DNA of 62,791 nucleotides, the filler included. It is 8 parts of 8 records of this genome, joined end to end, with 100 filler letters (N's around TTAATTAATTAA, not from the genome) between each part and the next. Parts side by side here need not be neighbours in the genome. Positions count along the whole stretch, not along the records: positions 33,206 to 42,135 come from SRR31147125_19153; 7 more parts are not named here. The stretch is one strand, 5' to 3'. Positions 5,013-55,699 of this stretch are shown one piece after another. The first letter of the stretch is position 1. Each line of letters opens with the position of its first letter. Under the pieces are notes generated by a model. That model was not told the origin of the DNA. It did no database searches and saw nothing but the letters and a program-made list of their open reading frames with translations. The translations under genes and the position numbers were made by a program.

Positions 5013-5014
5013 TC

Positions 5015-6013: not shown

Positions 6014-6895
6014 ATGGAAAAGATAATTGAAGGTATTATTCCACCGATCGTAACACCATTTAATCATGACGGATCAATTAATGAAAAACTATTTGCAAAA
6101 GAAATCCACATTAGCGTTAATGCAGGCGTTCATGGAATTAGTGTAAGTGGAAGCACTGGCGAAGGACCAACAATCCGTGATGAAGAATTGCGCGATCTAA
6201 TCACTGTCGCAAAAGATATTGTAACCGATAATCAACCAATAGTATGCGGCATCATGCGTGCATGTACAAGAGATGCTGTGCAGGCGGGATTTGCAGCAAA
6301 AGCAGCAGGTGCAGATGCACTTATGATTACACCTACTGCTTATAATGTCTTGGTACCAAACGAAGAAGGTATGTTTGATTTTTACTCAACTATTTCAAAA
6401 GAAGTAGAGCTTCCAATAATTATTTATAATGTAATCCCACAGAACACTGTTTCTCCATTGCTTTTCAGCAAATTGCTGAATGAAACCAACCATGTTATGG
6501 GTATTAAGCAAAGCGTTGGCGGCGTTCCTGCATTATATGCTATGCAAATGCAGCGCGAAGATAGAGGAAAATTATACGCCGCAACTGATGATATGCTTTA
6601 CACTTGCTATTCACTTGGTGCACATGGCGCAATTTCTGCAATTTTGGCGGTATTCCCGAAATTGTGCGTAGAAATGTGGAACTGTTCTCAAAATGGCGAC
6701 TTTGAAAGAGCTCAAGAAATACAAGATTTATTATATCATCCATGGCAATGTATTGCGGGCAACCAATTCCCGATTCGCTTAAAATATGCACTCGAAGTTA
6801 TGGGTAGGGATCCTGGTTTTTGCAGAAGCCCCATTGCATATCTTCCTGACGACGAAAAAAGGAAAATCGAAAAGGCTTTTGAGAAATTAGGTTAG
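6014..6895 (+). CDS. Second DapA-family aldolase
   Basis: GIIPPIVTPF, GSTGE, IIIYN and GIKQS motifs. Confidence 0.9.
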   Translation: MEKIIEGIIPPIVTPFNHDGSINEKLFAKEIHISVNAGVHGISVSGSTGEGPTIRDEELRDLITVAKDIVTDNQPIVCGIMRACTRDAVQAGFAAKAAGADALMITPTAYNVLVPNEEGMFDFYSTISKEVELPIIIYNVIPQNTVSPLLFSKLLNETNHVMGIKQSVGGVPALYAMQMQREDRGKLYAATDDMLYTCYSLGAHGAISAILAVFPKLCVEMWNCSQNGDFERAQEIQDLLYHPWQCIAGNQFPIRLKYALEVMGRDPGFCRSPIAYLPDDEKRKIEKAFEKLG

Positions 6896-9255: not shown

Positions 9256-9260
9256 CTTCT

Positions 9261-10860: not shown

Positions 10861-10960
10861 NNNNNNNNNNNNNNNNNNNNNNNNNNNNNNNNNNNNNNNN
10901 NNNNTTAATTAATTAANNNNNNNNNNNNNNNNNNNNNNNNNNNNNNNNNNNNNNNNNNNN
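10861..10960. other. Artificial contig spacer
   Basis: N-run with central TTAATTAATTAA (stops in all six frames). Confidence 0.99.
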
Positions 10961-11037
10961 AGCTGTCAAAAACTGTGCTAAGCAAGGGTGATATTATATT
11001 TGTAACCAAAGACTAAAGCAGGTTGAAATGATATTCA

Positions 11038-11547
11038 ATGGAATATAATGAAAAGTTAGAATCTAATAAAGAAAAAATTACTAAGCAAATCGAAGTAATT
11101 TTTAATAAGTATAAGGTTCAAACTGTAGGTTGGGACTATATAGATTGTATTGTTATGAAAGAAAACGCTAAAGACTTTGTTGAGGAAATAAGCGCTTTGG
11201 GGATTCTTATTCATGCGATAAGTTGGTGGTGCTATGTTAATCCAAAAGAATCTAATAGAAGAGGATGCCCGCATGGTTACGGCGGACCAAGATCGAAGTT
11301 TTATGAAGGGTGGTTTAGTGAACTTCCTCATAATTTTTATCAAATAAATAAAGGTACACTAAATCAAATACTTCAGTATTATGAAAGCCAGCTCATATAT
11401 TCAACGAATTTAAATACCTTCAAAGAATATAAAAGAATCATTGATTCACCATTTAGATATATGCCAAACGAGTATATTCCGGTAAACGATTGTATTACAC
11501 CGGCATTTTGGCTGTATGTTCCAGATGATTGGAGAAGAATTGAATAA
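11038..11547 (+). CDS. Hypothetical protein
   Basis: 169-aa ORF with distinctive SWWCY and GCPHGYGGP segments; function not recognised. Confidence 0.7.
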   Translation: MEYNEKLESNKEKITKQIEVIFNKYKVQTVGWDYIDCIVMKENAKDFVEEISALGILIHAISWWCYVNPKESNRRGCPHGYGGPRSKFYEGWFSELPHNFYQINKGTLNQILQYYESQLIYSTNLNTFKEYKRIIDSPFRYMPNEYIPVNDCITPAFWLYVPDDWRRIE

Positions 11548-11719
11548 CAATAGCAACTAGAAATCAACTTAGTCAAACACCGGTCATTTTATTATGGAAA
11601 GTGAAGTTTTGAACACCCCAAACTATCAATTTATAACATTTTAGGTAAAAAAACTTTATTAAATTAAGAAATAGTGTTATTATATTTACATTAAATAAAG
11701 TCATAAATATAATAAAATT

Positions 11720-12178
11720 ATGAGGAGCAGCAAAATGGATGCTATCGATGTAGGCATATTAAATATCTTGCAGCATAACGCCAGAACTTCAGTAAAGGAC
11801 ATCAGTGACCAGGTCTCTCTGTCGGCGCCTTCGGTAAAAGAAAGAATAAACAAGATGATGGATTCCGGACTTATACGGGAATTCACTGCCGTGCTGGAGC
11901 CAAAAAAGCTGGGTAAAAACCTTACTGCATTCATGTTCTTAACGCTGAAAAGACCAAACGTAAACGACAAATTCCTAAACATGATAGAGTCAGAACAAGA
12001 TGTGCTTTTCTGCTATTACCTGACCGGAGATTTCGATTATATGATTCAGATAGTAACCGATGATTCGGCAAGGCTTGAGCAGGTATTATCTAAGATAAAG
12101 AGCACTCAGGAAGTTGCAAGAACACGAACGGTGATAGCGCTGTCTACAAAAAAAGAAAAACACTCTGTTGCGCCTTAA
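11720..12178 (+). CDS. Lrp/AsnC-family regulator, likely controlling ald
   Basis: MDAIDVGILNILQHNAR...VSLSAPSVKERI and LTGDFDY motifs; directly upstream of ald. Confidence 0.92.
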   Translation: MRSSKMDAIDVGILNILQHNARTSVKDISDQVSLSAPSVKERINKMMDSGLIREFTAVLEPKKLGKNLTAFMFLTLKRPNVNDKFLNMIESEQDVLFCYYLTGDFDYMIQIVTDDSARLEQVLSKIKSTQEVARTRTVIALSTKKEKHSVAP

Positions 12179-12201
12179 ATTAATTATTTAGGAGCTGCAT
12201 T

Positions 12202-13307
12202 ATGATTATTGGTGTACCTAAAGAAGTAAAAAACAACGAAAACAGAGTTTCACTTACGCCGGCGGGCGTCCACAAGCTTAAAGAAGAAGGACATAAAATA
12301 GTTGTACAAAGAGGCGCAGGAGTCGGCGGCGGTCTGGCTGATGAAGAATATATTAAGCAGGGCGCTGAAATGGCAGAGACAGCAAAGGAAGTCTTTGACA
12401 CAGCCGATATAATAGTTAAAGTAAAAGAACCGATAGAGAGCGAATACGAACTTTTCAAACAAGGTCAAAACCTTTTTACATATCTACACCTCGCACCAAA
12501 CAAAAAACTCACACAGATGCTTCTTGAAAAAGAAATCACGGGAATAGCTTACGAAACGCTTCAGCTTGCTGACGGCTCTCTTCCGCTGCTTATACCTATG
12601 AGCGAAGTTGCAGGGCGGATGTCTATACAGGTCGCCGCTATGCTCCAGCAGAAGTATTATGGAGGAAGGGGAATGCTTCTTAGCGGAATCCCGGGCGTTC
12701 TTCCGGCAGAGGTCGTGATTATAGGAGGCGGTATCGTTGGCAGCAATGCTGCACAGATGGCTGCAGGTATGGGGGCCAATGTTACAGTAATAGACACGAA
12801 TCAACGCCGTCTTGCAGAGCTTGACAACTTATACAGAGGTTCGATCAACACGCTGATGTCCAACCCGTATAACGTCGCTAAAGCTGTTCAAAAGGCAGAC
12901 GTGCTTATAGGAGCAGTGCTGGTAGCAGGGGCAAAAGCGCCAAAGACAGTGAGCGAAGCAATGGTAAAGAGCATGAAACAGGGTTCTGTTATAGTTGACG
13001 TCGCCATAGATCAGGGGGGACAGTCGAGACTATAGACAGGATAACGACGCACGACAACCCGTCTTATGTAAAACACGGTGTCGTGCACTATTCTGTGGCA
13101 AATATGCCGGGCGCAGTTGCTTATACGTCCACACAGGGGCTTACGGGCGTTACGCTGCCTTGGCTGGAGATGCTTGCAAGTAAAGGCATTGAGAACGCAA
13201 TAAGGGAAAGTGAGCCGCTAAAGAAAGCGCTTAACACTTATAAGGGCATGGTAGTCTGCAAACCGGTCGCAGATGCACTCGGATATCCTTACAGTATTTT
13301 CGAATAA
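12202..13307 (+). CDS. ald: Alanine dehydrogenase, frameshifted at the G-run near 13015
   Basis: MIIGVPKEVKNNENRV, PMSEVAGRMS, IIGGGIVG, VDVAIDQGG; continues in another frame as HYSVANMPGAV. Confidence 0.95.
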
Positions 13308-13322
13308 ATCTAAAGATGAATG

Positions 13323-13351
13323 GACTGCTCTAGTACGGGCAGTCTTTTTTT
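13323..13351 (+). terminator. Intrinsic terminator after ald
   Basis: GACTGCTC-TAGTAC-GGGCAGTC followed by a T run. Confidence 0.85.
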
Positions 13352-13406
13352 GTAACAATCAAAAAGTTTTTGTGGTATAATATAGCTATTAAGGGGAGGG
13401 AATATA

Positions 13407-14569
13407 ATGGCAAAATTCGTAATAGTGGTAATGGACAGTGTAGGAATAGGGGAACTACCCGATGCCGCAGAATACGGAGACCAAGGTTCAAATACAGTAG
13501 GAAACATATTGAAGCACGCAGGGCTGCACATACCAAACCTTGCAGAGCTTGGGATGGCCCGCCTTGTTGAAGGTTTGGAATCGGATAAGATAACAGGAGC
13601 ATTTGGAAGAGCGGAAGAGAAGTTTGCGGGCAAGGACACGACAGGAGGACACTTTGAAATAGCAGGGCTGGTTCTAGACAAGCCGTTTCCAGTTTTTCCG
13701 GACGGTTTTCCTGCAGAGTTTATGGAACGCTTCGAAGAGGCAGTCGGCAGAAAAATTATCGGCAACTATCCGGCTTCGGGCACAGAGATAATACAAAAGC
13801 TTGGTAAACAGCACGTAGAAACGGGCGCACTTATTGTATATACTTCAGCGGACAGCGTTTTTCAGATAGCGATGCATGAAAAAGTTATACCGATTGAAGA
13901 GCAGTACAGAATATGCGAAACTGCAAGAAAGATGCTGGTAGGTGATCTTGCCGTCGGGCGTGTAATATGCCGTCCGTTCGTAGGCACAGAAGGCAACTAT
14001 GTTAGAACGAAAAACCGAAAAGATTATTCGTTCGAGCCGCCGGGCGTTACTATACTTTCGGCGCTTGAAGCGGCAGGATACGAAGTTGCAGGTGTTGGAA
14101 AGATAGAGGATATCTTTGCCGGTGTGGGGCTTACGAAGACAAACCATACTACTGATAATGACAGCGGAATAAGTGCGACGATAGAATTCATTAAACAAGA
14201 CTTCGACGGCGGTCTGATTTTTACCAATCTCGTAGACTTTGACATGCTGTACGGACACAGGAATAACGTTGAAGGTTACAGAGACGCTCTGGAGGCTCTG
14301 GACAGCCGTGTACCGGAGGTCATTGATGCGTTGCACGATGAAGATATAGTGATATTTACAGCAGATCACGGCTGTGACCCTACAACTAAAAGCACTGACC
14401 ATTCAAGAGAGTATATACCAATTCTCGTTTACGGAAACAACGTAAAGCCGGGGTGGATATAGGCACAAGAAAAACGTTTGCAGATATTGCAGCAACGGTG
14501 GCTGAGTTCTTTGGTCTGCCTAAGTGGAGTGAAGGGGAGTCGTTCCTAAGTGAAATAACGAAAGGATAA
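13407..14569 (+). CDS. deoB: Phosphopentomutase, frameshifted at the G-run near 14450
   Basis: VMDSVGIG, GKDTTGGHFE, NLVDFDMLYGHR and TADHGCDP motifs; the tail GTRKTFADIAAT is in another frame. Confidence 0.95.
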
Positions 14570-18938: not shown

Positions 18939-19038
18939 NNNNNNNNNNNNNNNNNNNNNNNNNNNNNNNNNNNNNNNNNNNNTTAATTAATTAANNNNNN
19001 NNNNNNNNNNNNNNNNNNNNNNNNNNNNNNNNNNNNNN
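18939..19038. other. Artificial contig spacer
   Basis: N-run with TTAATTAATTAA. Confidence 0.99.
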
Positions 19039-20647: not shown

Positions 20648-23220
20648 TTATTTGCCAATTTCTTGTAATATTTTTTGAAAACGGATGTCATTTTTCAAAT
20701 CTTGTAATTCAGGATTATTATCAATATATGCCGGTGAATGTCCCATTTTCAAAGCTGATTCAATATATTCAAGAGCGTGATCACGCTTGCCCAATTGTTC
20801 ATAAATCTCTCCAATATGAAAAATTATAGAATAATCTGTTGGCATTAGTGCCAAAACCCGTTCTAATAAATTGATTGCTTTTTTATTCTTACCCAATGTT
20901 GCGTAATATCCAGCTAGGTCAGCCAATACCTCCGGATCATTGGGATTCACAGATAATTGTCTCTCACCGTATTCAATTGCTTTATTGTAGGTTTTTGCCG
21001 CTATATCTTTCTGATCCTCACTCCAATAATAACAAGACGCCAGATTTCCCCAGATTTTATAATTTTCACCTGAAATTGCGACAGCGTGTTCTAACATCAT
21101 GGCAGCATCAGCAAAACGACCTTGATAAAAATACAGAGTACCCAAATTTGAGTAGGCAGTATAATTTGGTTCAATACGAAGCGATTTTTCAAATTCTTCC
21201 CGTGCTTTATCCCACTGCTCGATATAAAAATAGATTCCACCCATATTATTAAAACCACGTACATTATCTGGAGTAAGTATGGTAACCTGTTTAAATTGTG
21301 CTATTGCATCCTCATAACGGCTCCGTCGGTAATAATAGGCACCAAGTTTGTTATATCCGGCCCAATAACCAGGTTGTATTTCAATAGCTCTGCGATAATT
21401 TATTTCAGCATCATCATACCGGCCAATCGCCTCGTTGGTCTGGGCTAATCCCATAAATGCTTCAGCATGTACCGGATTTAATTTTAATGTACTGCGGAAT
21501 TCTTCAATAGCTTCTGAATAACGACCGGTCTCTTCATATATCATACCAAGTGTCACATGAACGAGAGCCAATTGATTATCTATTTTTAATGCTGTATTAC
21601 AGTAATTCACTGCATCTTTAATGAGCTGTACATTCCGGTTGATTTGGTATTTCCGCAAACAAGCTTTAGCGAGCCCCGCATAGGCTAATGCATATTGTGA
21701 ATCTTTACTTAGTGCCTGCTGAAATAAAGAGATTGCTGTATTCACATTGGATAATTTTTCGTAACGTAAAAGGTATCCCTGTCCATGCAAATAAAGATTA
21801 TAAGCCTCAGAATTTCCGGTTTCACCTGCTAATAAAACTTTCCGCTCATGCGGTTTAAGGTCTATTGCCAACATATTTGTTAATTCGTCAATAACTTTAT
21901 CTTTTACAGCAGGCATATTCTTCAATCTGTCTTCAATGACAGAAGACTCTAGTTGCCGAAGACTCTTTACATCCACTAAATTTAGTGTAAGTGTAATTAT
22001 TTCTTTTACACACTGAACACTACCCGTAATCGCAAGTGTAACGCCAAAAAACCGGAGGGCATCACTGGGGCTGTTAACATTCTGCTTTCGTAGCTCGCTT
22101 GAAGGTACAACCCATAATGAGCCTCGGAAACGCTGTAATTCAGTCAATTTGCTGGATAGTGTTTCCATCAGGCCATCAATAAAAACCTGGCTAAGGGAGT
22201 CTCCCACTATATTATTAAAGGGAATAATCGCAAGGTGTTTTTCCTCAGGAATATTCAAAATTCCGAACCTTTGTCTAAAATTCCCCCAAGCTAAAACAAT
22301 CAATAATACAACAATTGCTAAAAGAAAAGTTCTGACATACACTGACATTTTGAAAATTTTTCGATGCTGTTTTTTTCTTTGACTTTTAATCGTTTTCCAT
22401 TTTTAATTTCATTCTCAATATCACACAAGTCCATCCAAAGTTCGTGGATGTTCTGGTATCGTTCATCAGGATTCTTTTTAAGGCATTTATCAATGAGAAT
22501 TTCAAGCTTTGTTGAATGATCCTGTCTAATTTGACTAACTGGCTGATAATCTTCCATAAGAATTGAATAAAAAACAGCTTGTTCGTACTCTCCTTTAAAA
22601 GGAAGATTCCCAGTAATTGCTTCGTACAAAGCAACTCCTAATGACCAGAAATCAGTACGACAATCAATTTCCTCTCCCCGGGCTTGTTCGGGGGACATAT
22701 AAAAGGAGGTTCCTTCAGTCAATTTCATTTTAGTGGATCCCTGTTGCCCGATAAGTTTCGCCAATCCAAAATCCAGAATCTTGACAACGCCATCTGAAGT
22801 GATTATAATATTGGCAGGTTTTATATCCCGGTGGATGATTCCTTTTTCGTGGGCTTTACTTAGTCCTTCTGCTATCTGGATAGTAAGGTTGATGGCTTCT
22901 TCAATTTCAAGTGAATCTCGCTCTATTTTTTTCTTTAGCGTCTCACCTTCATAACAGTCCATAACAATAAACAACTGACCATCATCTGTCTCGTCAATAT
23001 CATGGATGGTGCAGATGTTGTTATGTTGAAGGGCAGACGTAGCTTTTGCTTCCTGGATAAAACGCTGTTTAGCATCGGGATCACGCACCAAATCGGCTGG
23101 CAGGAACTTGAGGGCAACAATCCGGTCGAGTTTCGTATCCTCGGCTTTGTAGACGACACCCATTCCGCCTTCGCCGAGTTTTTCGAGGATTTTGTAATGG
23201 GATATGGTTTTGCCAATCAC
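20648..23220 (-). CDS. Ser/Thr kinase - TM - TolB-N-like - TPR protein, one gene split by an indel in the A-run near 22370
   Basis: LGEGGMGVVY, HRDIKPAN, DFG and YMSPEQ motifs. Adding one A fuses the kinase ORF to KQHRKIFKMSVYV..., followed by LAIIPF and many TPRs. Confidence 0.9.
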
Positions 23221-23348
23221 GATACTCTTCCTTTTGAGTCTCGATTGGTCTAAAACTCCGGAATAACTGAATTAAATTTTGTATTAATAAAAAGATATAT
23301 TGAATTTGGTTTTCAATCCACCACATATTCAAAAGGAAGAAAACTGGT

Positions 23349-23690
23349 CTATATTGAGAAGCTGGCAACAGCGCGGTCGGATGATTCGTAGGTATCAAAA
23401 ATCGTAATCATTTGAGTAATCATGAAGAGGCTGTTTACTTTATCCGTGGCACCGGCAATCTTTAGAACGCCATCACCATTTTTTAATGATGTGTGGCAGG
23501 ACATGAGCATGCCCAGGCCCTGGCTGTTCATCCATTTGACTTTGGAAAGATCGATAACTACTTTTTTAACCTGATCGTTAATTAAACTTTTAACCTTTGC
23601 ATGAACTTCCCAGGTTTCGTTTCCACCCATTAATTTGCCGCTAACAGTCAGGACAGCAACGTTATTTACAATTTTTTCTTTTACAGACAT
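23349..23690 (-). CDS. STAS-domain anti-sigma factor antagonist
   Basis: VIDLSKVKWMNSQGLGML with the conserved phosphoacceptor Ser. Confidence 0.93.
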   Translation of the reverse strand: MSVKEKIVNNVAVLTVSGKLMGGNETWEVHAKVKSLINDQVKKVVIDLSKVKWMNSQGLGMLMSCHTSLKNGDGVLKIAGATDKVNSLFMITQMITIFDTYESSDRAVASFSI

Positions 23691-23712
23691 TTTTGCCTCC
23701 CTTGAAATTATG

Positions 23713-25009
23713 CTAAGAAATTCTTTTTACAATTAGTATTGTCATATCATCCATTTGCGGCTGTGTCCCGGCATGTTCTTTAATATTTTCAAACAGCTCA
23801 TGGACAATAATTGCAGGTGATTTGTTTTTATTGCTATTAATAAAGTCGATAAGTCTTTCAATCCCATATTCTTCTTCGGCGTCATTCATTGCTTCTGTAA
23901 TTCCGTCTGAATAGGCAAACAGCATGTCATCAGGCTCAAAGGTTATGATACTTTCCGGGAAGTCATAATCATCCAAAAAACTGAGTGGAATCCCGGTTTC
24001 AATTAAAGGTCTCGGATCCTTTTTAGCAGAAAAAAGAATCGGTCTGTCATGTCCGGCATTTGAATAATGAAAATTATGATTTTGAGGATCCAGTACTCCG
24101 TAAAAAAAAGTAGCAAATCTATGCGAATCTGTACTTTTATGCAGTAATTTGTTTGACTTTTTAAGACAGACACCTGGAGAGCAGATATCCAGAGTTTGGG
24201 CCCGAATTGTTGCCTGCAAGTTGGCCATGAGCATAGCTGCCGGCAGTCCTTTGCCGGAAACATCGCCGAGACATGTGGCAATACGGCCGTCATCAATGGA
24301 TATAAAATCGTAATAGTCGCCTCCTACAACCTGGGCAGGTCTGCTGACGCCGGTTAGTTCATAACCGGGAATGTTGGGTAAACATTTCGGTAATAGTCCC
24401 GTTTGTATATCATACGCAAGCCGCAATTGCTCCTGAACCAATAGCAATTCTTGTTCTTCTTCATATAAGCGAGCGTTCTCTAAAACCTGTGCTGACTGAC
24501 CGGCAATGATTGTTAACAAACGTTGGTCTTCTTCGCTGAATGATTCTTCTGTTTTTTTATTCAAAACAGTCAAAATACCGATTACATGAGATTTTGCAAG
24601 TAAAGGTACACATAAAATATTTTTGATGGATTCATCCCAGTTTACTCCAACAAAGCGGCTATCATTGCGTGGATTTGATAACAGTAACGGCTTTTTATGT
24701 AATAACATATATCCAAGGAGAGCCTGATCCATATGGAATGGTTGGTGGGACGTTGAACTTACCATAGTTCGTACAAGGGTCTGTGAGGATGATTTCTGGC
24801 TATCATCAACCATAATTATTGTTCCCTGTTCCCCATGCAAGGCCCTTAAGGAGCGGCTGATAATTTTTTGCATAATAGCCTGAGAATCTGTTGAAGCGCC
24901 AATTTCACGAGCCAATTCATTTAAAACAGAAAGCTCTTCAACAGCACTTTTTAACCTTTTTTTCTTTTTCAAGTTTATTTATTGTTTGCTTGTCAACATC
25001 ATGACTCAT
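23713..25009 (-). CDS. GAF + PP2C (SpoIIE/RsbU-like) phosphatase; true start probably 25009, with an indel near 24960
   Basis: GAF domain, VGGDYYD, GDVSGKG, YSDGITEA and DDMT motifs. The corrected N-terminus reads MSHDVDKQTINKLEKE. Confidence 0.92.
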
Positions 25010-27965: not shown

Positions 27966-28065
27966 NNNNNNNNNNNNNNNNNNNNNNNNNNNNNNNNNNN
28001 NNNNNNNNNTTAATTAATTAANNNNNNNNNNNNNNNNNNNNNNNNNNNNNNNNNNNNNNNNNNNN
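27966..28065. other. Artificial contig spacer
   Basis: N-run with TTAATTAATTAA. Confidence 0.99.
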
Positions 28066-33105: not shown

Positions 33106-33205
33106 NNNNNNNNNNNNNNNNNNNNNNNNNNNNNNNNNNNNNNNNNNNNTTAATTAATTAANNNNNNNNNNNNNNNNNNNNNNNNNNNNNNNNNNNNNNN
33201 NNNNN
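33106..33205. other. Artificial contig spacer
   Basis: N-run with TTAATTAATTAA. Confidence 0.99.
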
Positions 33206-33323
33206 GGAACTCTTTCTTTCCGGCCTGAAAGGGGCTGTGGAGGAAGTGATTCAGTTTTCAGGATTCCAGACCATCATCAATATTGTTGATACCCCGGATC
33301 AGGCCTTGGATCACCTTGCTTAG
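33206..33323 (+). CDS. STAS-domain protein C-terminus (not in the ORF track)
   Basis: Manual translation ELFLSGLKGAVEEVIQFSGFQTIINIVDTPDQALDHLA* matches the end of anti-anti-sigma STAS proteins. Confidence 0.75.
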
Positions 33324-33357
33324 ATTCCGCCACAACACCGGTAGCCCGGCCAAAACC

Positions 33358-35652
33358 ATGAGATTGATGTTGAGAAAAACAGGACCGGTGGTCCTGCTCC
33401 TGTTCTTTTTTCTGCTTGGCCCTGGTCCTGGGGTTTTTGCGGCCCACACCCGGGAAAAACCCCATGTTCTGGTCCTCAATTCCTATAATAAGGGGTATGC
33501 CTGGACCGACAATCTGGTCCGGGGGATTGAGGATGTCTTCCGCTCCCGGCCCGGCATCGTCACCAAGGTGGAGTACATGGACGCCAAGGTCAATAATTCT
33601 ATTCCCTATTCTCTGTTGCTTAAAAGCCTCTATGATGCCAAGTACAGGGATAATCCGCCTGATGTGATCATTTCCAGTGACGATGATGCCCTAAGGTTTT
33701 TAAGGGCCTACGGGGAAAGACTTTTTCCCGGGGTGCCCCTGGTTTTTTGCGGGGTGAATAATTTTACCCCTGCCAAGGCCAAAGGACTTTCCCTGTATAC
33801 CGGCATTAATGAGGCTGCTGATTTTAAGGCCAATCTCTCCCTGATTTTAAAACTTCATCCCGGGACCAAAACCGTTTATGTGGTCAATGACCGGATGACA
33901 ACGGCCGGGTTTTTAAGATCTGAATTTATCCTGGCCGCCCTGGGGTTTACGGGCCGGGTGGACTTTGTCTATATGGATAACCTTTCCATGGCCGAGTTGA
34001 GGGAGAGGCTGGCCCGCCTGCCGGACAAGAGTGTTGTTTTTTACCTTTCCTTTTTTAAGGACAGTACCGGTCAAACCTTTACCCCTAAGGAGGCGGTGCC
34101 CATGATTACGACGGCCTCGTCCGCGCCTGTTTACGGGGCCGTGGATTATATGCTCGGCCTGGGGATCGTGGGAGGGATGCTCAAAAGCAGCTATTACCAG
34201 GGAGAGGCCGCAGCCCGGCTGGCCCTTCGGGTCCTTGACGGCGAACCGGTCCAAAGCCTGCCGGTTGTCATGAAAAGCCCCAACCAGTATATGTTTGATT
34301 ATACCGTTCTTAAGGCCAGGTCCGTTGACACCGGGCTTCTGCCCAGGGGCAGTATTTTAATCAACGAGCCTGAAACCCTTTATTATAAGTATAAAAAGCT
34401 GATTTGGACCACCGCATTTATCATGGCGGCCCTGGTGGCCTATATTGTGGTGCTCTTATTTAATATCAGAAAACGGATCCGCGCCCAGAAGGGGCTACAG
34501 ACCATTATCCATTCCACATCATCCATCCTGAACTACCAGTCCCCGGATGCCTTCAGAAAAGATCTGGCCGGTCATTTGAACCGGTTGATTCCCCTGCGGA
34601 CCCTGCCGTTTTTGTTTAAGCGGCGTCCGTCAGATTCCCCTGAAGGGGAAGGAAGCTTTCCTCTGCCTGTGGACGATGCGGACCGGGCGGCCATGGACGG
34701 GATGGGGGAGAATGAGTCCCGGATGCTGCTGGCCGCCCTGAAAGAGGAAAAGAGCCGTGTGAATCACAGAACCGGGGTGGCCTATTTTAATTCCGCATAT
34801 CTGCCCGGGAACCTTGCCGTTCTCAGCGGTTCCCGGAACCTGGATGACCTGGACCGGGACCTGCTTGAAATATTTGCCGGTAACGTTACCATGGCCGTGG
34901 ACAATCTTGAAAAACTCAGGATTGAAAAATCCCTTGAAACCGCCACCCAGATTCAGATGAGCATGCTTCCTGGGGATTTCGACACGTTCTCCAGGGAACA
35001 CCATATCGATCTGAACGCCTTTTTGAATCCGGCCAAAGAAGTGGGGGGCGACCTTTATGATTTTTTTGCCGTGGACGAAAACCATCTCTGCTTCGTGGTG
35101 GGGGATGTTTCCGATAAGGGGGTGCCTGCAGCCCTGTTCATGGCCATGGCCACCACCTTGATCCGGTCGGCTGCCGAAGGAAACCCCAGGCCCAACCAGA
35201 TCATTGCCAAGGCCAATGACGCCCTGTCCAGAAATAATGAGCAGTCCATGTTTGTCACCGTCTTTCTGGCCATCTTTAATACCGCTACCCGGGAACTTGC
35301 CTTTACCAGTGCCGGGCACAATCCCCCCTACCTTGTCCGGCCCGACGGAGAGGTCCGCCAGATCAAGGTGCAGCCGGGCCTGGTCATGGGCGGATTTGAA
35401 GGGGTGCCCTACGGGGTAGAGCAGATCCGGCTTGAAAAAGGAGACGGCCTTTATATTTACACTGACGGTGTGACCGAAGCCATGGACACTAAAGAAAGAT
35501 TTTACCAGGAAAAACGGCTTGAGGCGGTGCTGGCCCGGAATGGAAAGGCCCCGGCCAGGCAGGTGACCCAGCAGGTGGTCAAAGATGTTCAGGCCTTTGT
35601 CAACGGCGCGCCCCAATCCGACGATATCACCATGATGTTTGTCAGGGTATAA
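33358..35652 (+). CDS. Membrane sensor phosphatase: periplasmic ABC-binding-like domain, TM, GAF-like region, PP2C (SpoIIE)
   Basis: Signal peptide, VLVLNSYNKGYAWTD, TM helix, EVGGDLYD, GDVSDKG, YTDGVTEA and SDDIT motifs. Confidence 0.9.
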   Translation: MRLMLRKTGPVVLLLFFFLLGPGPGVFAAHTREKPHVLVLNSYNKGYAWTDNLVRGIEDVFRSRPGIVTKVEYMDAKVNNSIPYSLLLKSLYDAKYRDNPPDVIISSDDDALRFLRAYGERLFPGVPLVFCGVNNFTPAKAKGLSLYTGINEAADFKANLSLILKLHPGTKTVYVVNDRMTTAGFLRSEFILAALGFTGRVDFVYMDNLSMAELRERLARLPDKSVVFYLSFFKDSTGQTFTPKEAVPMITTASSAPVYGAVDYMLGLGIVGGMLKSSYYQGEAAARLALRVLDGEPVQSLPVVMKSPNQYMFDYTVLKARSVDTGLLPRGSILINEPETLYYKYKKLIWTTAFIMAALVAYIVVLLFNIRKRIRAQKGLQTIIHSTSSILNYQSPDAFRKDLAGHLNRLIPLRTLPFLFKRRPSDSPEGEGSFPLPVDDADRAAMDGMGENESRMLLAALKEEKSRVNHRTGVAYFNSAYLPGNLAVLSGSRNLDDLDRDLLEIFAGNVTMAVDNLEKLRIEKSLETATQIQMSMLPGDFDTFSREHHIDLNAFLNPAKEVGGDLYDFFAVDENHLCFVVGDVSDKGVPAALFMAMATTLIRSAAEGNPRPNQIIAKANDALSRNNEQSMFVTVFLAIFNTATRELAFTSAGHNPPYLVRPDGEVRQIKVQPGLVMGGFEGVPYGVEQIRLEKGDGLYIYTDGVTEAMDTKERFYQEKRLEAVLARNGKAPARQVTQQVVKDVQAFVNGAPQSDDITMMFVRV

Positions 35653-35665
35653 AATAAGGAAAACC

Positions 35666-36441
35666 ATGGAACCAGAAGATGATACCATGGGGTCCGGCAG
35701 GACCCTGGAACTCCCCCTGCGGCAGGGCAAACCCAGGCAGTTCGGCCTGACCGCGGTTACGGACCTGGGCATTCCCATTGGGGAACTGGACCGGATCCTT
35801 TCAGCCTACCATTCCTTTGTGGATATCGCCAAACTGGGGATCGGTTCGGCATATATTGAGCCCTGCCTGGAAGAAAAAATAAAATTGTACCGGGATTACG
35901 CCATTCCGGTCTATTTTGGAGGCACCCTTTTTGAAAAATTCTATATTCAGGGAAAACTCAGGGATTACCTGGGGTTTCTCAGAAGCCGGGGCATCGACTG
36001 GATTGAATTGTCCTCGGGCATCATTGACCTGCCCATGGAAAAGACCCTGGACCTGATCCGGGAACTGAAATCCGAATTCACCGTTGTGGTGGAGGTGGGG
36101 AAAAAAAACATGATTTTTCCCTTTCCATTGAAGCCTGGAAATCCAATACCAAATCGGCCCTGGAGGCCGGGGCCGTCTACGTGATCCTGGAGGGACGGAA
36201 TACGGCGGACACAGGAATTTTTCACGCTGACGGCACCCTGAACCGGTTCCTTCTGGACGAGGTGCTCAAAACCTGTGACAGCCGCCGCCTGATTTTTGAA
36301 ACCCCAACCCCCAGGAGCCAGAGCATGATCATTTCCATTGTGGGGGCCAATGCCAACCTGGGCAATATTTTTGTCCGGGACCTGGTTCTGGTGGAATCCC
36401 AGCGCCTGGGACTGAGGGAGGAAACCTTTGATATTGTGTAA
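35666..36441 (+). CDS. comA: Phosphosulfolactate synthase (ComA family), frameshifted at the A8 run 36101-36108
   Basis: GLTAVTDLG, DIAKLGIGS, FGGTLFE, IELSSG, EVGKK, VILEGR, LIFETP, NLGNI and RLGLREETF motifs. Confidence 0.88.
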
Positions 36442-36451
36442 AAAAAGGTAA

Positions 36452-36994
36452 GTGCCCATGGAACTTTTTATCATACGGCATCTGCCCACGGCATATAATG
36501 TCCGGGGGGTCCTCCAGGGAAGGCGGGATATTCCCATCCTCCCCCCGGATACGGCACAAATGGCAGTTATCCGTGCCAATAGGGAAACACTGGGGGATAT
36601 GGGAACCTTTGACCATGTGCTCACCTCCACCCTGAAGCGGACCCGGATGACCGCTGCCCATTATGTGGCGGACCACAGGGCCGATTCCCTTCTGGATGAA
36701 CTGGATTTCGGCCCCTATGAGGGCCGGCCAAAGGCTGATCTTCTAAGGGAGCAGCCCCTGTGGCGCAAACGGCCTGACCAATTAATCCTTGGAGAGCCAT
36801 TGTCAGCCCTTGGGGAAAGGGTGGGCCGGTTCCTTGAGATATACGAAACCAGAGGAAAAATCCTGGTCTTTGGCCATGGGGCATGGGCACGGGCCCTTTT
36901 GTCCCTGGTCGACTCCGGCAGCATCCGGGGGATGAACCAGATCCGCATCCCCAACAATGCCTTGGTCCGGGTCCGGCCGTCAAAGGAGAATTAG
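36452..36994 (+). CDS. Histidine phosphatase superfamily protein
   Basis: IIRHLPT, STLKRTRMTA, LDELDFGPYEG and VFGHG motifs. Confidence 0.88.
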   Translation: MPMELFIIRHLPTAYNVRGVLQGRRDIPILPPDTAQMAVIRANRETLGDMGTFDHVLTSTLKRTRMTAAHYVADHRADSLLDELDFGPYEGRPKADLLREQPLWRKRPDQLILGEPLSALGERVGRFLEIYETRGKILVFGHGAWARALLSLVDSGSIRGMNQIRIPNNALVRVRPSKEN

Positions 36995-38412
36995 GTGGAA
37001 GCCAAGGCAATTAAAAGGGCGCCGGCCGATAAGCCTCTGATCTGGCTTTTGCTGATCATTGCACCATTATTTCTTTATTTCTATTTGACCCATCTGGGCC
37101 TTGACCGGCAGATTGCGCTTTTTTCGGCCATTACGGCCGTCACCCTGATCGCCTGGGTCTTTTCCCTGATGGCGGATTTTGTTCCTGCTGTCCTGGCCCT
37201 GCTTTTGCTCATGGTTTTCGGGCTGGTGCCCAGGCAGGTCGCCCTTTCCGGGTTTTCCTCGGACGGGTTCCTCATCGCCTTCAGTGTCATGGGCCTGGGC
37301 GCGGTCATCACCGCTTCGGGTCTTGCCAACCGGTATACCCTTTGGGTGCTGGCAAGGATTCCGGCCCATTCATTTGCTTTTCAGGCTGTGGGGTTTTTCA
37401 CGGGGCTGGTCATGAATCCGGTGGTACCCACCATCACGGCCCGGGCCGCCATCACAGGGCCTGTGCTCAATCACATGGCCCAAAAAATGGACCGGGCCGA
37501 CCTGAAAAAGCAGGGGACCCTCCTTTATCTTTCCGGACTGGACGGGATTAATTACCTTTCCCCAGTCTTTTTGACCGCAGCCCCTGCCAACCTCATGGTT
37601 TTCGGGCTTTTTCCGGCCCAGGAACAGGCTGCCTTTCAATTTGCCTCCTGGGCTGCTGCCGCATCTGTGGCCGGCCTGATCATGCTGGTCTCCTATTTTC
37701 TGGTTTCCCTGTTTTTTTTCAGGGGATATGCCCGGGTAAAGATGGACAAGGACGAGATCATCAGCCAATACCGACATCTGGGGCCCATGACCTGGGAAGA
37801 GTCCACTGCCCTTTTGGGAATCGCCCTTCTGGCCATAGGGATTATCACAGGGGGGATGCACAGGATTCCCATTCCCCTGGTGGCCTTTGGGGTGATCAGC
37901 CTGCTTTTGGGGGTGAATGTCCTTTCCCGTAAATCCTTTATCCGGGAGATCGACTGGGCATTTTTATTTCTCATGGCAGGTATCATCGGGATCATGGCCA
38001 GTATGAAGCACATGGGACTGGATGAGATGATTGTGGCCCGGTTCCAGGGGTTCCAGGCTTTTATGCGCCTGGATTTTTACCGGTTTGTCCTGGTCCTCAC
38101 CGGTGCCACCCTCCTGGTCCGGCTCTTCATGCCCCTGAATGCCGCCATCGTTATCCTTGCGGCCGCCTTGGTGCCCATGGCTGCCGGCGCCGGGATCAGC
38201 CCCTGGGTGGTGGGATTCATCATCCTCATCATGGCGGAAACCGCTTTTTCGGATACCAGTCTCCCTATATTCTTTTTTTCCGGAATCTGACTGCCGGCCA
38301 TATCCCGTATTCCGAGGCCCGGGTCAGGATATTCCACGGTCTTCTGGTCCTCTGTAAACTTTTGGCCGTATACGGGTCCATTCCCCTGTGGAAGACCCTG
38401 GGACTCTTATGA
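36995..38412 (+). CDS. SLC13/DASS-family anion transporter, frameshifted near 38245
   Basis: ALSGFS, SGLANR, VPTITAR, VFLTAAPAN and IDWAFL motifs; the corrected tail ends SIPLWKTLGLL*. Confidence 0.85.
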
Positions 38413-38426
38413 AAAGGGGGCAAAAG

Positions 38427-39480
38427 ATGACTAAAAAGAATATCAGCCGTATCCTCTGCCTGGTATTTTTCATGCTGATCCTGGCGGCTGCGGTGGGCTT
38501 TAATATGTCAAAATCCGTTGTGATGGTGCTCCACAGCTATCACCCGGATTATGCCTGGACCCGGGATGTGGACGAGGGGCTTAAACGGGTGATGGGTCAG
38601 TGGACCCATTGTTCGGTGGTCCGGCATTATATGGACGGAAAAAACTTTCCGACCCTGAATGGCTTAAGCGGGCGGGCATCATCGCCCGTAAGGCGGTAAA
38701 GCGGAACCGGCCCAGGGTGCTCATCGCCGTGGATGACCTGGCCCAGTCCCTGGTCGGCAAATACTTTCTCAACCATCCGGACATGGATATCGTCTTTGCC
38801 GGGGTGAACGGGTCTGTATCGCCCTACGGGTATGACCGGGCCGACAATGTCACCGGGATTTTCGAAAGAAAACAGCTTAAGGCGGTCAAAGAGGCGATCC
38901 AGGCCATTGAAGGGAAAAAAGAGCGGCCCAATCCCAATCCGAAGCTGGCCTATCTTTTGGACGGTTCCCGCTCCCTTGCCCGGGGACGAACCCATATCGA
39001 CGATTTTACCTGGGATCCCCTGGTATATACCGGTTCTTTCGTGGCCACCTCCCTTAAGGGATGGAAAGAGGCCATCCTTAAACTCGGGGAAAAAGCAGAC
39101 TATATTCTGGTGGCCAACTATAGGAAGCTCATTGATCCGGGGGCGGGTATGCCGCCCCCGGAGCCGTGATGGCCTGGACCGACGCCCATTCAAAGGTTCC
39201 GGTCATCGGGATCAATGCATTTAATGTGGAGGACGGGGCCATGATTTCCATCGGGGTTTCCCCCTTTGAGCAGGGGGAAACAGCCGCATCCATGGCGGCC
39301 CGGATTCTGGAAACCGGAATGAGGGCCGGGGCCATTCCCATGGTCAAGAGCAAGCAGTATATCGTGGCGATCAGGGAATCCTCCCTTGACCGCCGGAGCA
39401 TGAAGCTGCCCGCTGTTTACGAGGCCTTTGGCAGGGCCACTGAAAATTTCATTGAAAAAGGCGAGGGCAGCCGCCCCTGA
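38427..39480 (+). CDS. Stand-alone periplasmic ABC-substrate-binding-like protein, with indels near 38640 and 39160
   Basis: Signal anchor, VMVLHSYHPDYAWTR, LIAVDDLAQ, VFAGVNG, NVTGIFE and SPFEQGETAA; same family as the sensor domain at 33358. Confidence 0.8.
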
Positions 39481-39487
39481 GATTTGA

Positions 39488-40801
39488 CTATCTGTTTGCC
39501 TTTCTCCAATTTTTGAGCCCTTTGCCGAAGGGGTCAAAAAGAAGCTCGTAATTGGGTATCTCTTCTTCTGAAAAAAAGCTTACCTTGGAAGAACAGAGGA
39601 TCAGTACGGTTCTCAGATTGTTTCTTTCATAACAGGGTTTGGCAAAATATGAACGGACGCCATGGGGGATGAAAAGCGCCCAGTCTATGGGCTTTATACT
39701 TTTAAAGGTATCATCCACAATGAGATAATCGAGTTTGTATTTTTCGATATTTTCAGCAATGGTCCCTTCAAAATTATAGGTGGCCCCCATTTTAAGGCTT
39801 TTAAAGGCGTCTCCGTATGCAAAAACTTTGATTTTACCCCGTTTGATATAGATATCCGAGTACATAATGGAATCAAAACCCTCATCCTGGAATTGATTTT
39901 TCAGAAGGCAATCAAGGATGTCGGGCATGGTTGACAGCTTGGCCACTTTAGCCGTTAATTTTGAAACAAAACGCTGACGTTTGTCTTCAACCGGAGATTT
40001 CTTATCATCAGCATATGCTTTTTTCTTTGATTCTTCCGCGTATACTTTATGAATTGAGAGTCTTAAAACGGTTTTTCCTTTAAAATTCAGGCTTCGGACG
40101 ATACATTCAGCATAGAAGGCAGAACGCTTTTTTCCATGGAGGAGGAGTTTTCCTTCCCATGTACCGTCAAAAAGTGATTTTTCATATATCTTGGATATAT
40201 GGAAAGAAATTTCCTGATGGTATAGGTCCTGAAAGGTGAGCTTATTGAATTCATTAAAACTGTAACCGAGGAGTTCTGCGGCCTCGCTGTTATGGGAAAG
40301 CACTTTTTTGTTTTCAAAATCAATGAGTATAATAGGGTAATCAAATTGCTCGACCATGGCCAGGCGCTTTTTGTCCACCTCACAGGTCTGGGTGATAAAG
40401 GGCACGGTTTCGCTGATATCCTGAATATATCCGACATAATGGGAGGGGTAGTCCGCGCTGGGGGCACCAACAATCTTTATCCATTCATAGGACTCTTTCC
40501 CATCTATTTTTATGCGGAAGACAATGGAAGCCGGGCGCCCTTCAGCCATGGCGCTTTTAAAAGACCTGAACCGAATAATGTCATCGGTGCAAATGATACT
40601 TTCAGCAAAGTTCATACTTTTAAGCAGCAATTCTGTATTGTCGCCTAAACCTTCAATCTTGAAATCATTTAAAAATTCAATTTTATTGCGTATAAGATCC
40701 ACTTTCCAAAAAAGTGTTTGGACAGAATCAATGAAGCTTAAAATGTCTTCAATTTTAAAATCAGTCTTATGCAGAAAGGTGTCGTTTTGATTCTCTTTCA
40801 T
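39488..40801 (-). CDS. PAS-PAS-GAF-like sensory protein with no recognisable output domain
   Basis: PAS motifs (WIKIVG...GYIQDIS; HNSEAAELLGYS) and C-terminal GAF-like GVRSYFAKP. Confidence 0.75.
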   Translation of the reverse strand: MKENQNDTFLHKTDFKIEDILSFIDSVQTLFWKVDLIRNKIEFLNDFKIEGLGDNTELLLKSMNFAESIICTDDIIRFRSFKSAMAEGRPASIVFRIKIDGKESYEWIKIVGAPSADYPSHYVGYIQDISETVPFITQTCEVDKKRLAMVEQFDYPIILIDFENKKVLSHNSEAAELLGYSFNEFNKLTFQDLYHQEISFHISKIYEKSLFDGTWEGKLLLHGKKRSAFYAECIVRSLNFKGKTVLRLSIHKVYAEESKKKAYADDKKSPVEDKRQRFVSKLTAKVAKLSTMPDILDCLLKNQFQDEGFDSIMYSDIYIKRGKIKVFAYGDAFKSLKMGATYNFEGTIAENIEKYKLDYLIVDDTFKSIKPIDWALFIPHGVRSYFAKPCYERNNLRTVLILCSSKVSFFSEEEIPNYELLFDPFGKGLKNWRKANR

Positions 40802-41279
40802 AATTATTTACCTGCAAGATCTCCTTTTTGGCTCAAACCGGTATGATCAGGTTTGGGTTTATATATACGGATCGTTAAAAGGGGGATGGGGCTTTGAAAT
40901 CGGGGAATAAGGATATAATCTCGATAAATCCGTTTGCTATGCAATGGTTGAGTCGTCACAAAATAGTTAGGTGTAATAAGAATCCGTATTGGGAATTTAC
41001 TATATCCATTCTAATGCGGTCCCTGAACAGAACAAACTACGTGTGGGACCTTTTGTCAAGCATAATATGCCCGGGTTTTGTGAACCCTTTAAAATTTTGT
41101 CAGTGCCTGAACAGCCTTTATTTCCCGGCCAAAACGATACCATAACGCCTTTCATTTTTTTGACCTCGTCACAAGGGGCCGATATTTATATCTGTCCGGT
41201 TTCCGGACAATTTTATCTCTATCAAATTTGACTCACAAAAACCATAATACCATGAAAAAGAATCTGGTGGGTTATTGTA

Positions 41280-41295
41280 AATTGGTCTATCCAAT
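41280..41295. promoter_or_regulatory. Possible FadR/LldR-type operator
   Basis: AATTGGTCTATCCAAT upstream of the GntR gene, close to the TGGTNNNACCA consensus. Confidence 0.5.
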
Positions 41296-41368
41296 ATTGG
41301 GTGTTTTTGTTAATATTGGGTGCGGATTTTATATTGACGTTTTGTCTGAAAATTATTAATGGGTTGGT

Positions 41369-42135
41369 ATGGCCAAAACAAGGGGCGCTATGGAAAAAAC
41401 AAAAAAAGAAAATGTGATGGGCCGCATGATTGCAATTGTCCAGGAAAACCAGATGAAATCCGGAGACAGATTGCCTTCGGAAAGGGAAATGGCAGAGACG
41501 TTTAAAACCAGCCGTGCAACTGTGCGGGAAGTGCTCAGATCCATTGAAGAGAAGGGGCTGCTTAAGGTCGTGAGGGGAAGCGGCGCTTATTTAAATTGTG
41601 ATTTTACCGAATTTAAAAATGTGCTCCAGGCCTCCTGTCAAAAGACGGTTTCCCAGACAATCAGAGAGTATTTTGAAGTCCACGCTGTTTTTGTGGCAAA
41701 TATGGCCAGGGTTGCTGCCTTGGAAGCGGATGAGAAAAAACTTGAGGATATGCGTAAGACAACAGTCAAGATGAGTGTGGCGCTTATTGACAGGAATTAT
41801 GAAAAATTTGTTTTTCAAGAGAACCGTTTTTTTATGATTCTTGCGGAGATGAGTAAAAATTTTCTTTTTCTGAAACTCATGGGGCTTGTAATTAAACAGC
41901 ATAGATTTGTCTGGGACGAGGTTGTAAAGGAAAAACTATTCCCGAATGAAACGTTTTTTGCCGGCTATGTGAATATTTATAATGCATTGAGGGCGGGAAA
42001 TCCCTCAATAGCCTGTCTCAAGGTTCAAGAAAGCATATTTGACGTACTTGATCTTCTGGTTGACAAAGTTGATCCTTCTTTTAAAGGCACCAAAGATTAT
42101 CTAAAGAGCGTATTGGAGGTCGAAATTGAACACTA
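41369..42135 (+). CDS. GntR/FadR-family regulator
   Basis: GDRLPSEREMAETFKTSRATVREVL...GSGAY; ends at the contig edge. Confidence 0.9.
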
Positions 42136-42235
42136 NNNNNNNNNNNNNNNNNNNNNNNNNNNNNNNNNNNNNNNNNNNNTTAATTAATTAANNNNNNNNN
42201 NNNNNNNNNNNNNNNNNNNNNNNNNNNNNNNNNNN
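42136..42235. other. Artificial contig spacer
   Basis: N-run with TTAATTAATTAA. Confidence 0.99.
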
Positions 42236-47532: not shown

Positions 47533-47632
47533 NNNNNNNNNNNNNNNNNNNNNNNNNNNNNNNNNNNNNNNNNNNNTTAATTAATTAANNNNNNNNNNNN
47601 NNNNNNNNNNNNNNNNNNNNNNNNNNNNNNNN
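47533..47632. other. Artificial contig spacer
   Basis: N-run with TTAATTAATTAA. Confidence 0.99.
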
Positions 47633-55599: not shown

Positions 55600-55699
55600 N
55601 NNNNNNNNNNNNNNNNNNNNNNNNNNNNNNNNNNNNNNNNNNNTTAATTAATTAANNNNNNNNNNNNNNNNNNNNNNNNNNNNNNNNNNNNNNNNNNNN
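55600..55699. other. Artificial contig spacer
   Basis: N-run with TTAATTAATTAA. Confidence 0.99.

Follow-up and report, generated by a model that had tools for sequence, protein, structure and literature searches.

The window analysed here is a 62,791-nucleotide stretch of DNA assembled from eight contigs, one of which (positions 33206–42135) carries a six-gene cluster at 33206–39480 that is one copy of a conserved operon of sulfur-cycling bacteria. The operon encodes a STAS protein, a membrane-bound sensor phosphatase of the PP2C type, a ComA-family phosphosulfolactate synthase, a histidine phosphatase (His_Phos), a DASS-type permease and a membrane-anchored substrate-binding protein (SBP) of family PF04392. 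We are confident that the genes are intact and that the cluster is a functional unit. On the basis of family membership and gene context, ComA and His_Phos probably make 3-sulfolactate, and the permease and SBP are likely to operate as a pair. More tentatively, we propose a circuit in which sulfolactate is made, sensed in the periplasm and re-imported, a reading that, with its inward direction included, we hold to be plausible but somewhat short of probable. A preliminary description of this DNA had suggested a make-export-sense system; its conserved gene set, intact genes, replacement of ComB and rejection of coenzyme M synthesis are supported, while the export step, the sensing of sulfolactate by both periplasmic domains and the assignment to a sulfate reducer are weakened or unsupported.

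Organization and Intactness of the Cluster

All six genes are present, co-oriented on the plus strand and tightly packed, as first described and as a Pfam scan confirms (Table 1). The intergenic gaps are, in order, 34, 34, 10, 0 and −4 nucleotides, the last being an ATGA stop/start overlap. Because the cluster opens at the very edge of its contig (33206), the STAS gene is truncated; its score of 16.6 bits lies under the cut-off of 22.6, which we attribute to the mere 38 amino acids (aa) on the contig, and the tail is 47% identical to residues 75–108, the end, of the full-length STAS protein in a related metagenome locus, L096. Both sequence motifs quoted in the preliminary description were recovered in the translations of the PP2C periplasmic domain and of the last gene.

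Table 1. Features of the window and of two related loci (window positions unless a locus is named)
Feature	Position	Strand	Details
STAS protein (anti-sigma-antagonist type), C-terminal tail, 38 aa	33207–33323	+	PF01740, 16.6 bits, profile positions 74–106 of 106
Membrane sensor PP2C, 764 aa	33358–35652	+	SpoIIE 184 bits, DUF3369 53 bits, ABC_sub_bind 25.1 bits
ComA-family phosphosulfolactate synthase	35687–36441	+	Two pieces, E 9.6e-38 and 2e-14; one A short in run 36101–36108
His_Phos_1 phosphatase, ComA-linked subfamily, RHLxT motif	36452–36994	+	PF00300 83.5 bits (cut-off 21.7); candidate 2-phosphosulfolactate phosphatase
DASS/IT-superfamily permease, narrow subfamily	36995–38412	+	Na_sulph_symp 91.2 bits (cut-off 27); one T short in run 38245–38249
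Membrane-anchored PF04392 binding protein (SBP)	38409–39480	+	Three pieces; one A short (run 38639–38644), one G short (run 39139–39143)
Inter-stop spacer, 7 bases	39481–39487		Convergent stop codons; G+C drops from ~56% to ~39%
PF13469 sulfotransferase in the place of ComA and His_Phos	L091 5934–6812; L093 8245–9222		
Artificial 100-base joints	10861–10960, 18939–19038, 27966–28065, 33106–33205, 42136–42235, 47533–47632, 55600–55699		

The record breaks the reading frame four times in 6.3 kb, in each case within a homopolymer (A8, T5, A6 and G5, in the runs given in Table 1). For comparison we used the contigs of X1, the sole public run holding this DNA, in which 97% of the sampled words of the stretch are present. 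At depths of 77–87, the X1 contigs differ from the record solely by one added base behind each of positions 36100, 38244, 38638 and 39138, and frame arithmetic on the coordinates shows that these four insertions bring ComA, DASS and SBP back into frame. Each frameshift is a single-base homopolymer loss absent from X1, which bears out the earlier view of the indels as sequence errors. Because the extra bases restore every frame, the operon is not decaying. What weakens this comparison is that X1 is possibly the record's own source sample, so that the check is not fully independent.

The alternative is that the frameshifts are genuine and the operon is a pseudogene remnant, or that assembly chimerism or contamination joined a GC-rich block to unrelated DNA. 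The number of frameshifts, a record made of joined short contigs and the base composition could all be cited in its favor. The block at 33206–39480 has ~54% G+C and a G+C content at third codon positions (GC3) of 0.64–0.72, compared with 0.44 for the other two genes on the same contig, a PAS protein and a GntR regulator, and 0.21–0.30 for three genes sampled from other contigs of the window; the G+C content falls sharply at 39480. However, a single X1 contig of 7446 bases (depth 76.8) matches 38245–42135 without a differing base and so spans the junction, and the cluster genes of the relatives are all uninterrupted. Another X1 contig continues 5962 bases upstream of 33206. The deposited assembly did not create the G+C junction. 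As the X1 contigs restore the frames and bridge the junction, both decay and chimerism were rejected as very improbable.

Conservation of the Gene Set

A metagenome scan with a DASS alignment returned 18 loci, which were sorted by tblastn and Pfam. Eight of them (L083–L088, L092 and L094) have the window order PP2C-ComA-His_Phos-DASS-SBP, L088 and L092 apparently representing one organism sampled twice, and two more (L090 and L097) are cut short but compatible with that order. Two loci of 35–37% G+C (L089 and L096) have a shuffled arrangement, ComA-PP2C-long DASS-SBP-His_Phos-STAS-HATPase_c_2 kinase-class III cyclase. In a further five (L091, L093, L095, L099 and L100, the last two apparent duplicates), PP2C-DASS-SBP is followed by a PF13469 sulfotransferase, mostly with a kinase and STAS as well, and the retrieved DNA of these five holds neither ComA nor His_Phos. 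The remaining locus, L098, has too little DNA to class. Every locus with sufficient DNA has one sulfo-group enzyme set, either ComA with His_Phos or the sulfotransferase. The gene set is thus conserved together, as a synteny search had been expected to show.

Among the named relatives of the cluster proteins are both sulfate reducers (Desulfobacter, Desulfotalea) and oxidisers of sulfur (Thiodiazotropha, Halochromatium, Halobeggiatoa), and the sources name Desulfobacter vibrioformis for homologues of ComA as well as of DASS. The host had been described as a probable sulfate reducer. That assignment is weakened by this mixture of reducers and oxidisers and by a Pfam scan of 52 open reading frames (ORFs) on the other contigs of the window, in which no dissimilatory sulfur or sulfate-reduction gene was found. 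The low-GC contigs of the record may come from a different organism than the cluster contig.

A Histidine Phosphatase in the Place of ComB

The two pieces of ComA cover positions 3–135 and 163–242 of the 243 in PF02679 (130 and 54 bits; cut-off 25.2), and the hole between them is due to the frameshift that is mended in X1. The N-terminal fragment of the window's ComA keeps every one of the 22 columns that do not vary in an alignment of 31 sequences, the C-terminal piece lying outside this scoring. The nearest relatives of the fragment are 57–69% identical to it, and the named ones include Desulfobacter sp., D. vibrioformis and a Halobeggiatoa. A metagenome scan with this single fragment as query found no relative. 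A genome scan with the ComA alignment gave at least 80 loci, mostly from Bacillota and Bacteroidota, with the closer Desulfobacter-type genomes not among the matches listed.

By tblastn, a His_Phos homologue (32–48% identical) starts within ~50 bases of the ComA stop in 21 of the 80 loci listed, and in L004 it lies one gene further downstream. Among these loci the adjacency spans Bacillota, Bacteroidota, Verrucomicrobiota and Pseudomonadota; the remaining 58, chiefly from Chitinophagaceae, have no His_Phos homologue next to ComA. In the tree, a branch with support of 100/99 separates all His_Phos-linked ComAs from the Bacteroidota type. The window ComA falls in a narrower clade, likewise supported at 100/99, whose members all show the linkage to His_Phos and DASS wherever their context is known. 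The Bacteroidota-type ComA is found without a phosphatase neighbor in all five loci examined (L023, L035, L051, L064 and L076, ~8300–11700), in a separate conserved setting with a TPR protein on one side and a shikimate-dehydrogenase-like gene on the other.

In the window, the phosphatase next to ComA matches His_Phos_1 and has no match to PF04029, the ComB family, in the Pfam scan. PF04029 was detected in one of five genomes that carry the ComA-His_Phos pair, where it lies 0.7 Mb from ComA. Across 15 His_Phos sequences, residues R9, H10, R63, E83 and H142 do not vary, and we take R9/H10, R63, E83 and H142 to be the catalytic Arg-His pair, the second Arg, the Glu and the second His of histidine phosphatase branch 1. 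The protein scores 66.6 bits against the model of the CobC alpha-ribazole phosphatase, TIGR03162 (cut-off 162.9), and the GpmB cut-off is likewise far from reached; with the L084 homologue as query, the best solved relative is CobC (E 7.4e-10).

Further evidence comes from Bacillaceae, where Priestia megaterium and its relatives carry ComA-His_Phos-CysH-Sat-CysC, opposite an MFS transporter and a TauE protein. In Bacillus subtilis, yitCD and yitBA-yisZ are inferred to make the sulfolactate of spores, yitD being ComA and yitC ComB, according to PMC517825. The Priestia operon matches this set with ComB swapped for His_Phos, which supports replacement of ComB by the phosphatase. Taken together, the adjacency in 21 of 80 loci, the CysH-Sat-CysC context and the four of five genomes in which ComB was not found give good comparative support to the earlier suggestion that a histidine phosphatase stands in for ComB. 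In the P. megaterium locus itself (L009, 7339–13863), a separate ComB occurs elsewhere in the same genome. PMC517825 reports, however, that no sulfolactate was found in the spores of B. megaterium, and the product may have another role there.

Archaea make coenzyme M through ComA-ComB-ComC-ComDE, and the presence of a ComA-family enzyme raises the alternative that the cluster encodes the first steps of coenzyme M biosynthesis, by this route or by the bacterial Xcb route. The likeness to the archaeal pathway would lie in the joining of phosphoenolpyruvate (PEP) and sulfite to give phosphosulfolactate, followed by dephosphorylation, both of which are predicted here. In contrast, no ComB, ComC, ComD or ComE is found on the cluster's contig by Pfam, as had been noted before, or in the 18 related loci, and the context is one of transport and signalling. 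Scored with the archaeal equivalog model TIGR03849, whose cut-off is 280 bits, the 140-aa ComA fragment reaches 95.2 bits, although scoring the fragment alone is a harsh test. We therefore rejected coenzyme M synthesis, in agreement with the preliminary description, as exceedingly improbable; the end product here is probably sulfolactate.

Elsewhere the ComA-His_Phos pair occurs in settings that look like make-and-attach uses. It is joined to an AMP-binding ligase and a radical SAM/B12 enzyme in L004 (9971–14488), to an AMP-binding ligase and an MBOAT acyltransferase in L017 (4348–8630), and in two Bacteroidota loci (L013 and L021, ~10000–13700) it lies in polysaccharide loci beside two proteins of 390–430 aa.

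The Permease and Its Binding Protein

Besides its top Pfam family, Na_sulph_symp, the permease matches CitMHS (57.5 bits) and DctM (26.2 bits), a weak DctM match underlying the stronger DASS matches. Against the DASS subfamily model TIGR00785 it reaches 98.3 bits, below the cut-off of 198.6, and by these scores it is a divergent member, of a narrow subfamily. Because the score is so far under the cut-off, its substrate is unreadable from the family name. Scoring 8000 candidates gave 62 DASS relatives at E ≤ 0.001, with a hint that nine of the 62 are linked to ComA matches.

In each of the 16 metagenome loci whose DNA extends beyond the DASS gene, the next gene is that of the SBP, L094 and L098 being too short. 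Nine of 400 sampled gammaproteobacterial species have a wider-family DASS at E ≤ 1e-80, and there the SBP follows at 11 of 11 places, which ties the SBP to DASS at all 27 assessable places. No PP2C occurs at the 11 gammaproteobacterial places, and ComA is absent from all five of the nine genomes that were searched for it. The DASS stop and SBP start overlap in the window and in L084 and L089.

The SBPs are ~346 aa long and have a single N-terminal hydrophobic helix, which lies at residues 2–27 in a structural model of the protein (pLDDT 96.6). The PF04392 match (40.7 bits) is to the last third of the protein. The top solved matches of the model are 3LKV, 3LFT and 6HNI, PF04392-type proteins with amino-acid ligands; otherwise the model has the generic type I binding-protein fold. 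A protein representative search found 146 SBP representatives at E ≤ 1e-30. A Pfam scan showed no ABC permease or ATPase gene beside the SBP in the window; the same question in the 18 metagenome loci was confined to those scanned against Pfam, and L085 has an unrelated ABC_tran/UPF0014 pair after the SBP. Nor did Pfam detect any DctQ, DctP, TAXI or Tct protein in the cluster, which places it outside the TRAP and TTT systems.

In PMC12344293, SBPs are described as giving uptake its directionality, the membrane parts of TRAP systems as sharing the DASS fold, and SBP partnerships with elevator carriers as an emerging theme; a TAXI-GltS pairing is inferred there from co-localisation and translational coupling. 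DASS-SBP shows both of these features as well, the exception being fused forms, of which none were found. Since DASS is always paired with an SBP and known SBP partnerships serve uptake, uptake is favored over export, by analogy with those systems. The earlier statement that DASS exports the product is weakened accordingly, as the SBP follows DASS even in genomes without ComA. To our knowledge, no exporter of a small solute requires an SBP.

A longer form of the permease was also noted. In L089 (8915–11386) and L096 (9131–11410), the DASS protein has a 300-aa N-terminal extension without a Pfam match, in which the two copies are 38% identical. An open frame of 883 aa in L105, considered as a candidate DASS-SBP fusion, was rejected because it consists of two ORFs with a stop between them.

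The Sensor Phosphatase

The PP2C protein consists of a hydrophobic N-terminus, a PF04392 domain, a second membrane helix (aa 347–372), DUF3369 and the SpoIIE/PP2C domain. In a hydrophobicity scan the PF04392 domain is flanked by the N-terminal hydrophobic stretch and helix 347–372, and is for this reason placed in the periplasm. The catalytic domain is full-length, covering positions 2–191 of the 192 in PF07228 with 184 bits. As proposed earlier, the periplasmic domain and the last gene of the operon are of the same family; in L084 the two are 26% identical over 317 residues (E 5e-16). The two binding domains are therefore paralogues, and PP2C relatives adjoin the cluster in 13 of the 13 metagenome loci that hold upstream DNA.

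Parts of a partner switch accompany the sensor. Of the 18 metagenome loci, eight carry an RsbW-like HATPase_c_2 kinase and five a STAS gene; on the window contig, which begins there, the PP2C and the STAS tail are the only such parts. PP2C also matches the NCBIfam model of SiaA, though weakly (45.9 bits; cut-off 700).

Cyclic nucleotides appear in several relatives. Two are among the gammaproteobacterial places. In the first, L115 (4449–8950), a PF04392 receptor is fused directly to a class III nucleotide cyclase next to DASS-SBP. In the second, L114 (3269–6708), a cyclic nucleoside monophosphate (cNMP)-binding domain is carried on the DASS N-terminus, and the same fusion is found in P0138–P0145. 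In L096 (13821–18104), a cyclase and a SulP-STAS-cNMP protein lie beside the cluster, the SulP protein facing it.

Proposed Circuit and Alternatives

In the circuit that we propose, ComA would join sulfite to PEP, and a dedicated histidine phosphatase rather than ComB would take off the phosphate to give 3-sulfolactate. DASS and the translationally coupled, membrane-anchored SBP would form one elevator-type, binding-protein-dependent secondary transporter that works inward and draws sulfolactate or a similar dianion out of the periplasm, by uptake or recapture. The periplasmic domain of PP2C, as a paralogue of the SBP, may read the same solute, and PP2C would then dephosphorylate the STAS protein of a partner switch, to which the relatives add a kinase of the RsbW type and one form of the cluster a nucleotide cyclase as well. 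Such a logic would resemble AI-2 circuits of the LuxPQ/Lsr kind, or ectoine recapture, more than it resembles a dedicated exporter.

Several observations weigh against this proposal. No fused DASS-SBP protein was found, although the search for longer forms, which gave one unrelated match, is weak evidence. A fold search with the SBP model points to no ligand, returning the generic binding-protein fold alone. An alignment of 12 SBPs of the ComA and sulfotransferase types has 92 columns that are invariant over all of them, and the four fixed substitutions that divide the two types are all conservative. This constancy across an enzyme swap is awkward for strict product-sensing: if the SBP binds the product of the enzymes, both sets must make near-identical, near-isosteric dianions, and otherwise the ligand would be something common to both, such as an oxyanion. 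The sensor-cyclase links and the cNMP-binding forms of DASS are as compatible with an exporter under feedback as with a controlled importer. Finally, a maker of a dead-end dianion needs a release route, which DASS could provide by exchange.

The first alternative is the make-export-sense reading of the preliminary description, in which ComA and His_Phos make sulfolactate, DASS exports it, possibly by exchange, and the SBP and the PP2C domain sense its release, either as a sulfite overflow valve or as an autoinducer-like signal. The biosynthetic genes share their operon with the sole carrier, Pfam detects no sulfolactate-consuming gene in the cluster, and other contexts of ComA and His_Phos carry an attaching enzyme or a transporter (the MFS protein of Bacillaceae; the AMP-ligase of L017 and L004, with MBOAT or radical SAM, respectively). 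Malate is a typical substrate of DASS carriers, sulfolactate is its sulfonate analogue, and some DASS proteins act as exchangers. The exchange of ComA and His_Phos for a sulfotransferase can be read as a different maker with unchanged handling, and the cyclase links and cNMP-binding DASS forms fit feedback on export. We nevertheless consider this reading unlikely, given that the SBP is tied to DASS throughout, including in genomes without ComA, that known SBP partnerships confer uptake (PMC12344293), and that the conserved positions of the SBP are unchanged between ComA-type and sulfotransferase-type loci.

The constancy of the SBP is best accounted for by a second alternative, in which DASS and the SBP import a precursor. 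Sulfate, sulfite or thiosulfate would be taken up for ComA, which uses sulfite, or for the sulfotransferase, which uses 3′-phosphoadenosine 5′-phosphosulfate; PP2C would sense that anion outside, and the product would serve an internal or surface use. Both enzyme types use sulfate-derived sulfur, the top Pfam family of the permease is Na_sulph_symp, the Bacillaceae pair is joined to sulfate activation genes, and the SulP-STAS-cNMP protein of L096 faces the cluster. However, with a permease score of 98 bits against the DASS subfamily cut-off of 198.6, the family name is no guide to substrate, and the nearest solved relatives of the SBP bind amino acids and not oxyanions. Sulfate reducers and sulfur oxidisers, the very organisms among the named relatives, make sulfite and adenosine 5′-phosphosulfate internally. 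Import of a precursor would also leave the product without a role, and we judge this alternative to be improbable, although not remotely so.

Returning to the circuit with re-import of sulfolactate, its widest form is one that we put forward as speculative and on balance doubtful. In this form, DASS-PF04392 would be a further class of binding-protein-dependent secondary transporter that, together with a binding domain on PP2C or fused to a cyclase, makes up an extracellular organosulfonate circuit: sulfolactate would be drawn from the sulfite pool of sulfur-cycling bacteria, its periplasmic level read, and the compound taken up again. Sulfolactate would then be a signal or a managed solute and not a pathway intermediate.

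Relation to Known Systems

Each of the three kinds of system proposed here has known counterparts: the making of sulfolactate, partner switching, and elevator carriers that work with an SBP. As in B. subtilis yitCD, a ComA-family enzyme and a phosphatase occur in a non-methanogen, and the pair of Bacillaceae likewise adjoins CysH, Sat and CysC. The window differs from yitCD in that the phosphatase is His_Phos_1, not PF04029, and in that the enzymes are joined to DASS-SBP and PP2C and not to sulfate activation or sporulation control. The misaugamycin genes misNOPQ were considered as a possible instance of the same system and rejected, since by PMC9136965 the ComA there serves a sulfoacetyl group and works without a phosphatase.

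The TRAP, TTT and TAXI-GltS systems of PMC12344293 share with the cluster an elevator-fold carrier that adjoins, and is translationally coupled to, a periplasmic binding protein. Here, in contrast, the carrier is DASS-like and has no DctQ-like part, and the SBP is anchored in the membrane and comes from PF04392, which is known from ABC systems. PMC12344293 mentions no DASS-PF04392 pairing, and the term PF04392 does not occur in it. Our literature search, which lay largely outside subscription journals, returned no description of this cluster, of a link between ComA and a histidine phosphatase, or of a DASS carrier paired with a PF04392 protein.

RsbU-RsbV-RsbW partner switches and SiaABCD of Pseudomonas combine a PP2C phosphatase, a STAS protein and a kinase, and SiaD follows SiaC. 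The operon resembles them in its PP2C with a sensory N-terminus, its STAS protein and, in relatives, a HATPase_c_2 kinase, which in L089 and L096 is followed by a nucleotide cyclase, as SiaD follows SiaC. It differs in that the input is a periplasmic PF04392 domain, that the kinase and output are not on the window contig, and that the cyclase is of class III, not a GGDEF protein. In the autoinducer 2 (AI-2) circuit, a metabolite is made by LuxS, sensed by LuxP-LuxQ and re-imported by LsrB-LsrACD. The shared logic would be sensing by a periplasmic binding fold and re-import that depends on a binding protein, and LuxP is among the generic fold matches of the SBP model. Past this shared fold there is no homology, and the chemistry, the carrier class and the output all differ.

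If a histidine phosphatase is the non-orthologous replacement of ComB, an unnamed family in at least four phyla would gain an annotation, and sulfolactate synthesis would be revealed in many genomes where it is now invisible. A DASS-like carrier that always occurs with a binding protein would lengthen the short list of binding-protein-dependent secondary transporters and offer a new system for studying how elevator carriers and SBPs are coupled. Where sulfate reducers and sulfur oxidisers couple the synthesis of sulfonates or sulfate esters to a partner switch that senses the periplasm, small organosulfur acids may be sensed or managed extracellularly.

Other Features of the Window

The eight contigs are separated by seven identical artificial linkers (44 N + TTAATTAATTAA + 44 N), and gene neighborhood across these joints is meaningless. 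The contig at 47633–55599 has ~51% G+C and GC3 of 0.60–0.64 and carries type VI secretion genes (ClpV-like tail, IcmF-related, IglE_N, VipA and VipB); its composition contrasts with that of the surrounding contigs of 34–40% G+C, so that it is either foreign DNA or from a second organism in the record. On a low-GC contig, positions 22321–24972 (minus strand) encode an unrelated set that resembles a partner switch, in which a TPR protein comes after a GAF-SpoIIE phosphatase, a STAS protein and a Ser/Thr protein kinase. The first contig carries, at 905–6892, an ordinary-looking group made up of a TctCBA tripartite tricarboxylate transporter, two DHDPS-family genes and a GntR/FCD regulator.

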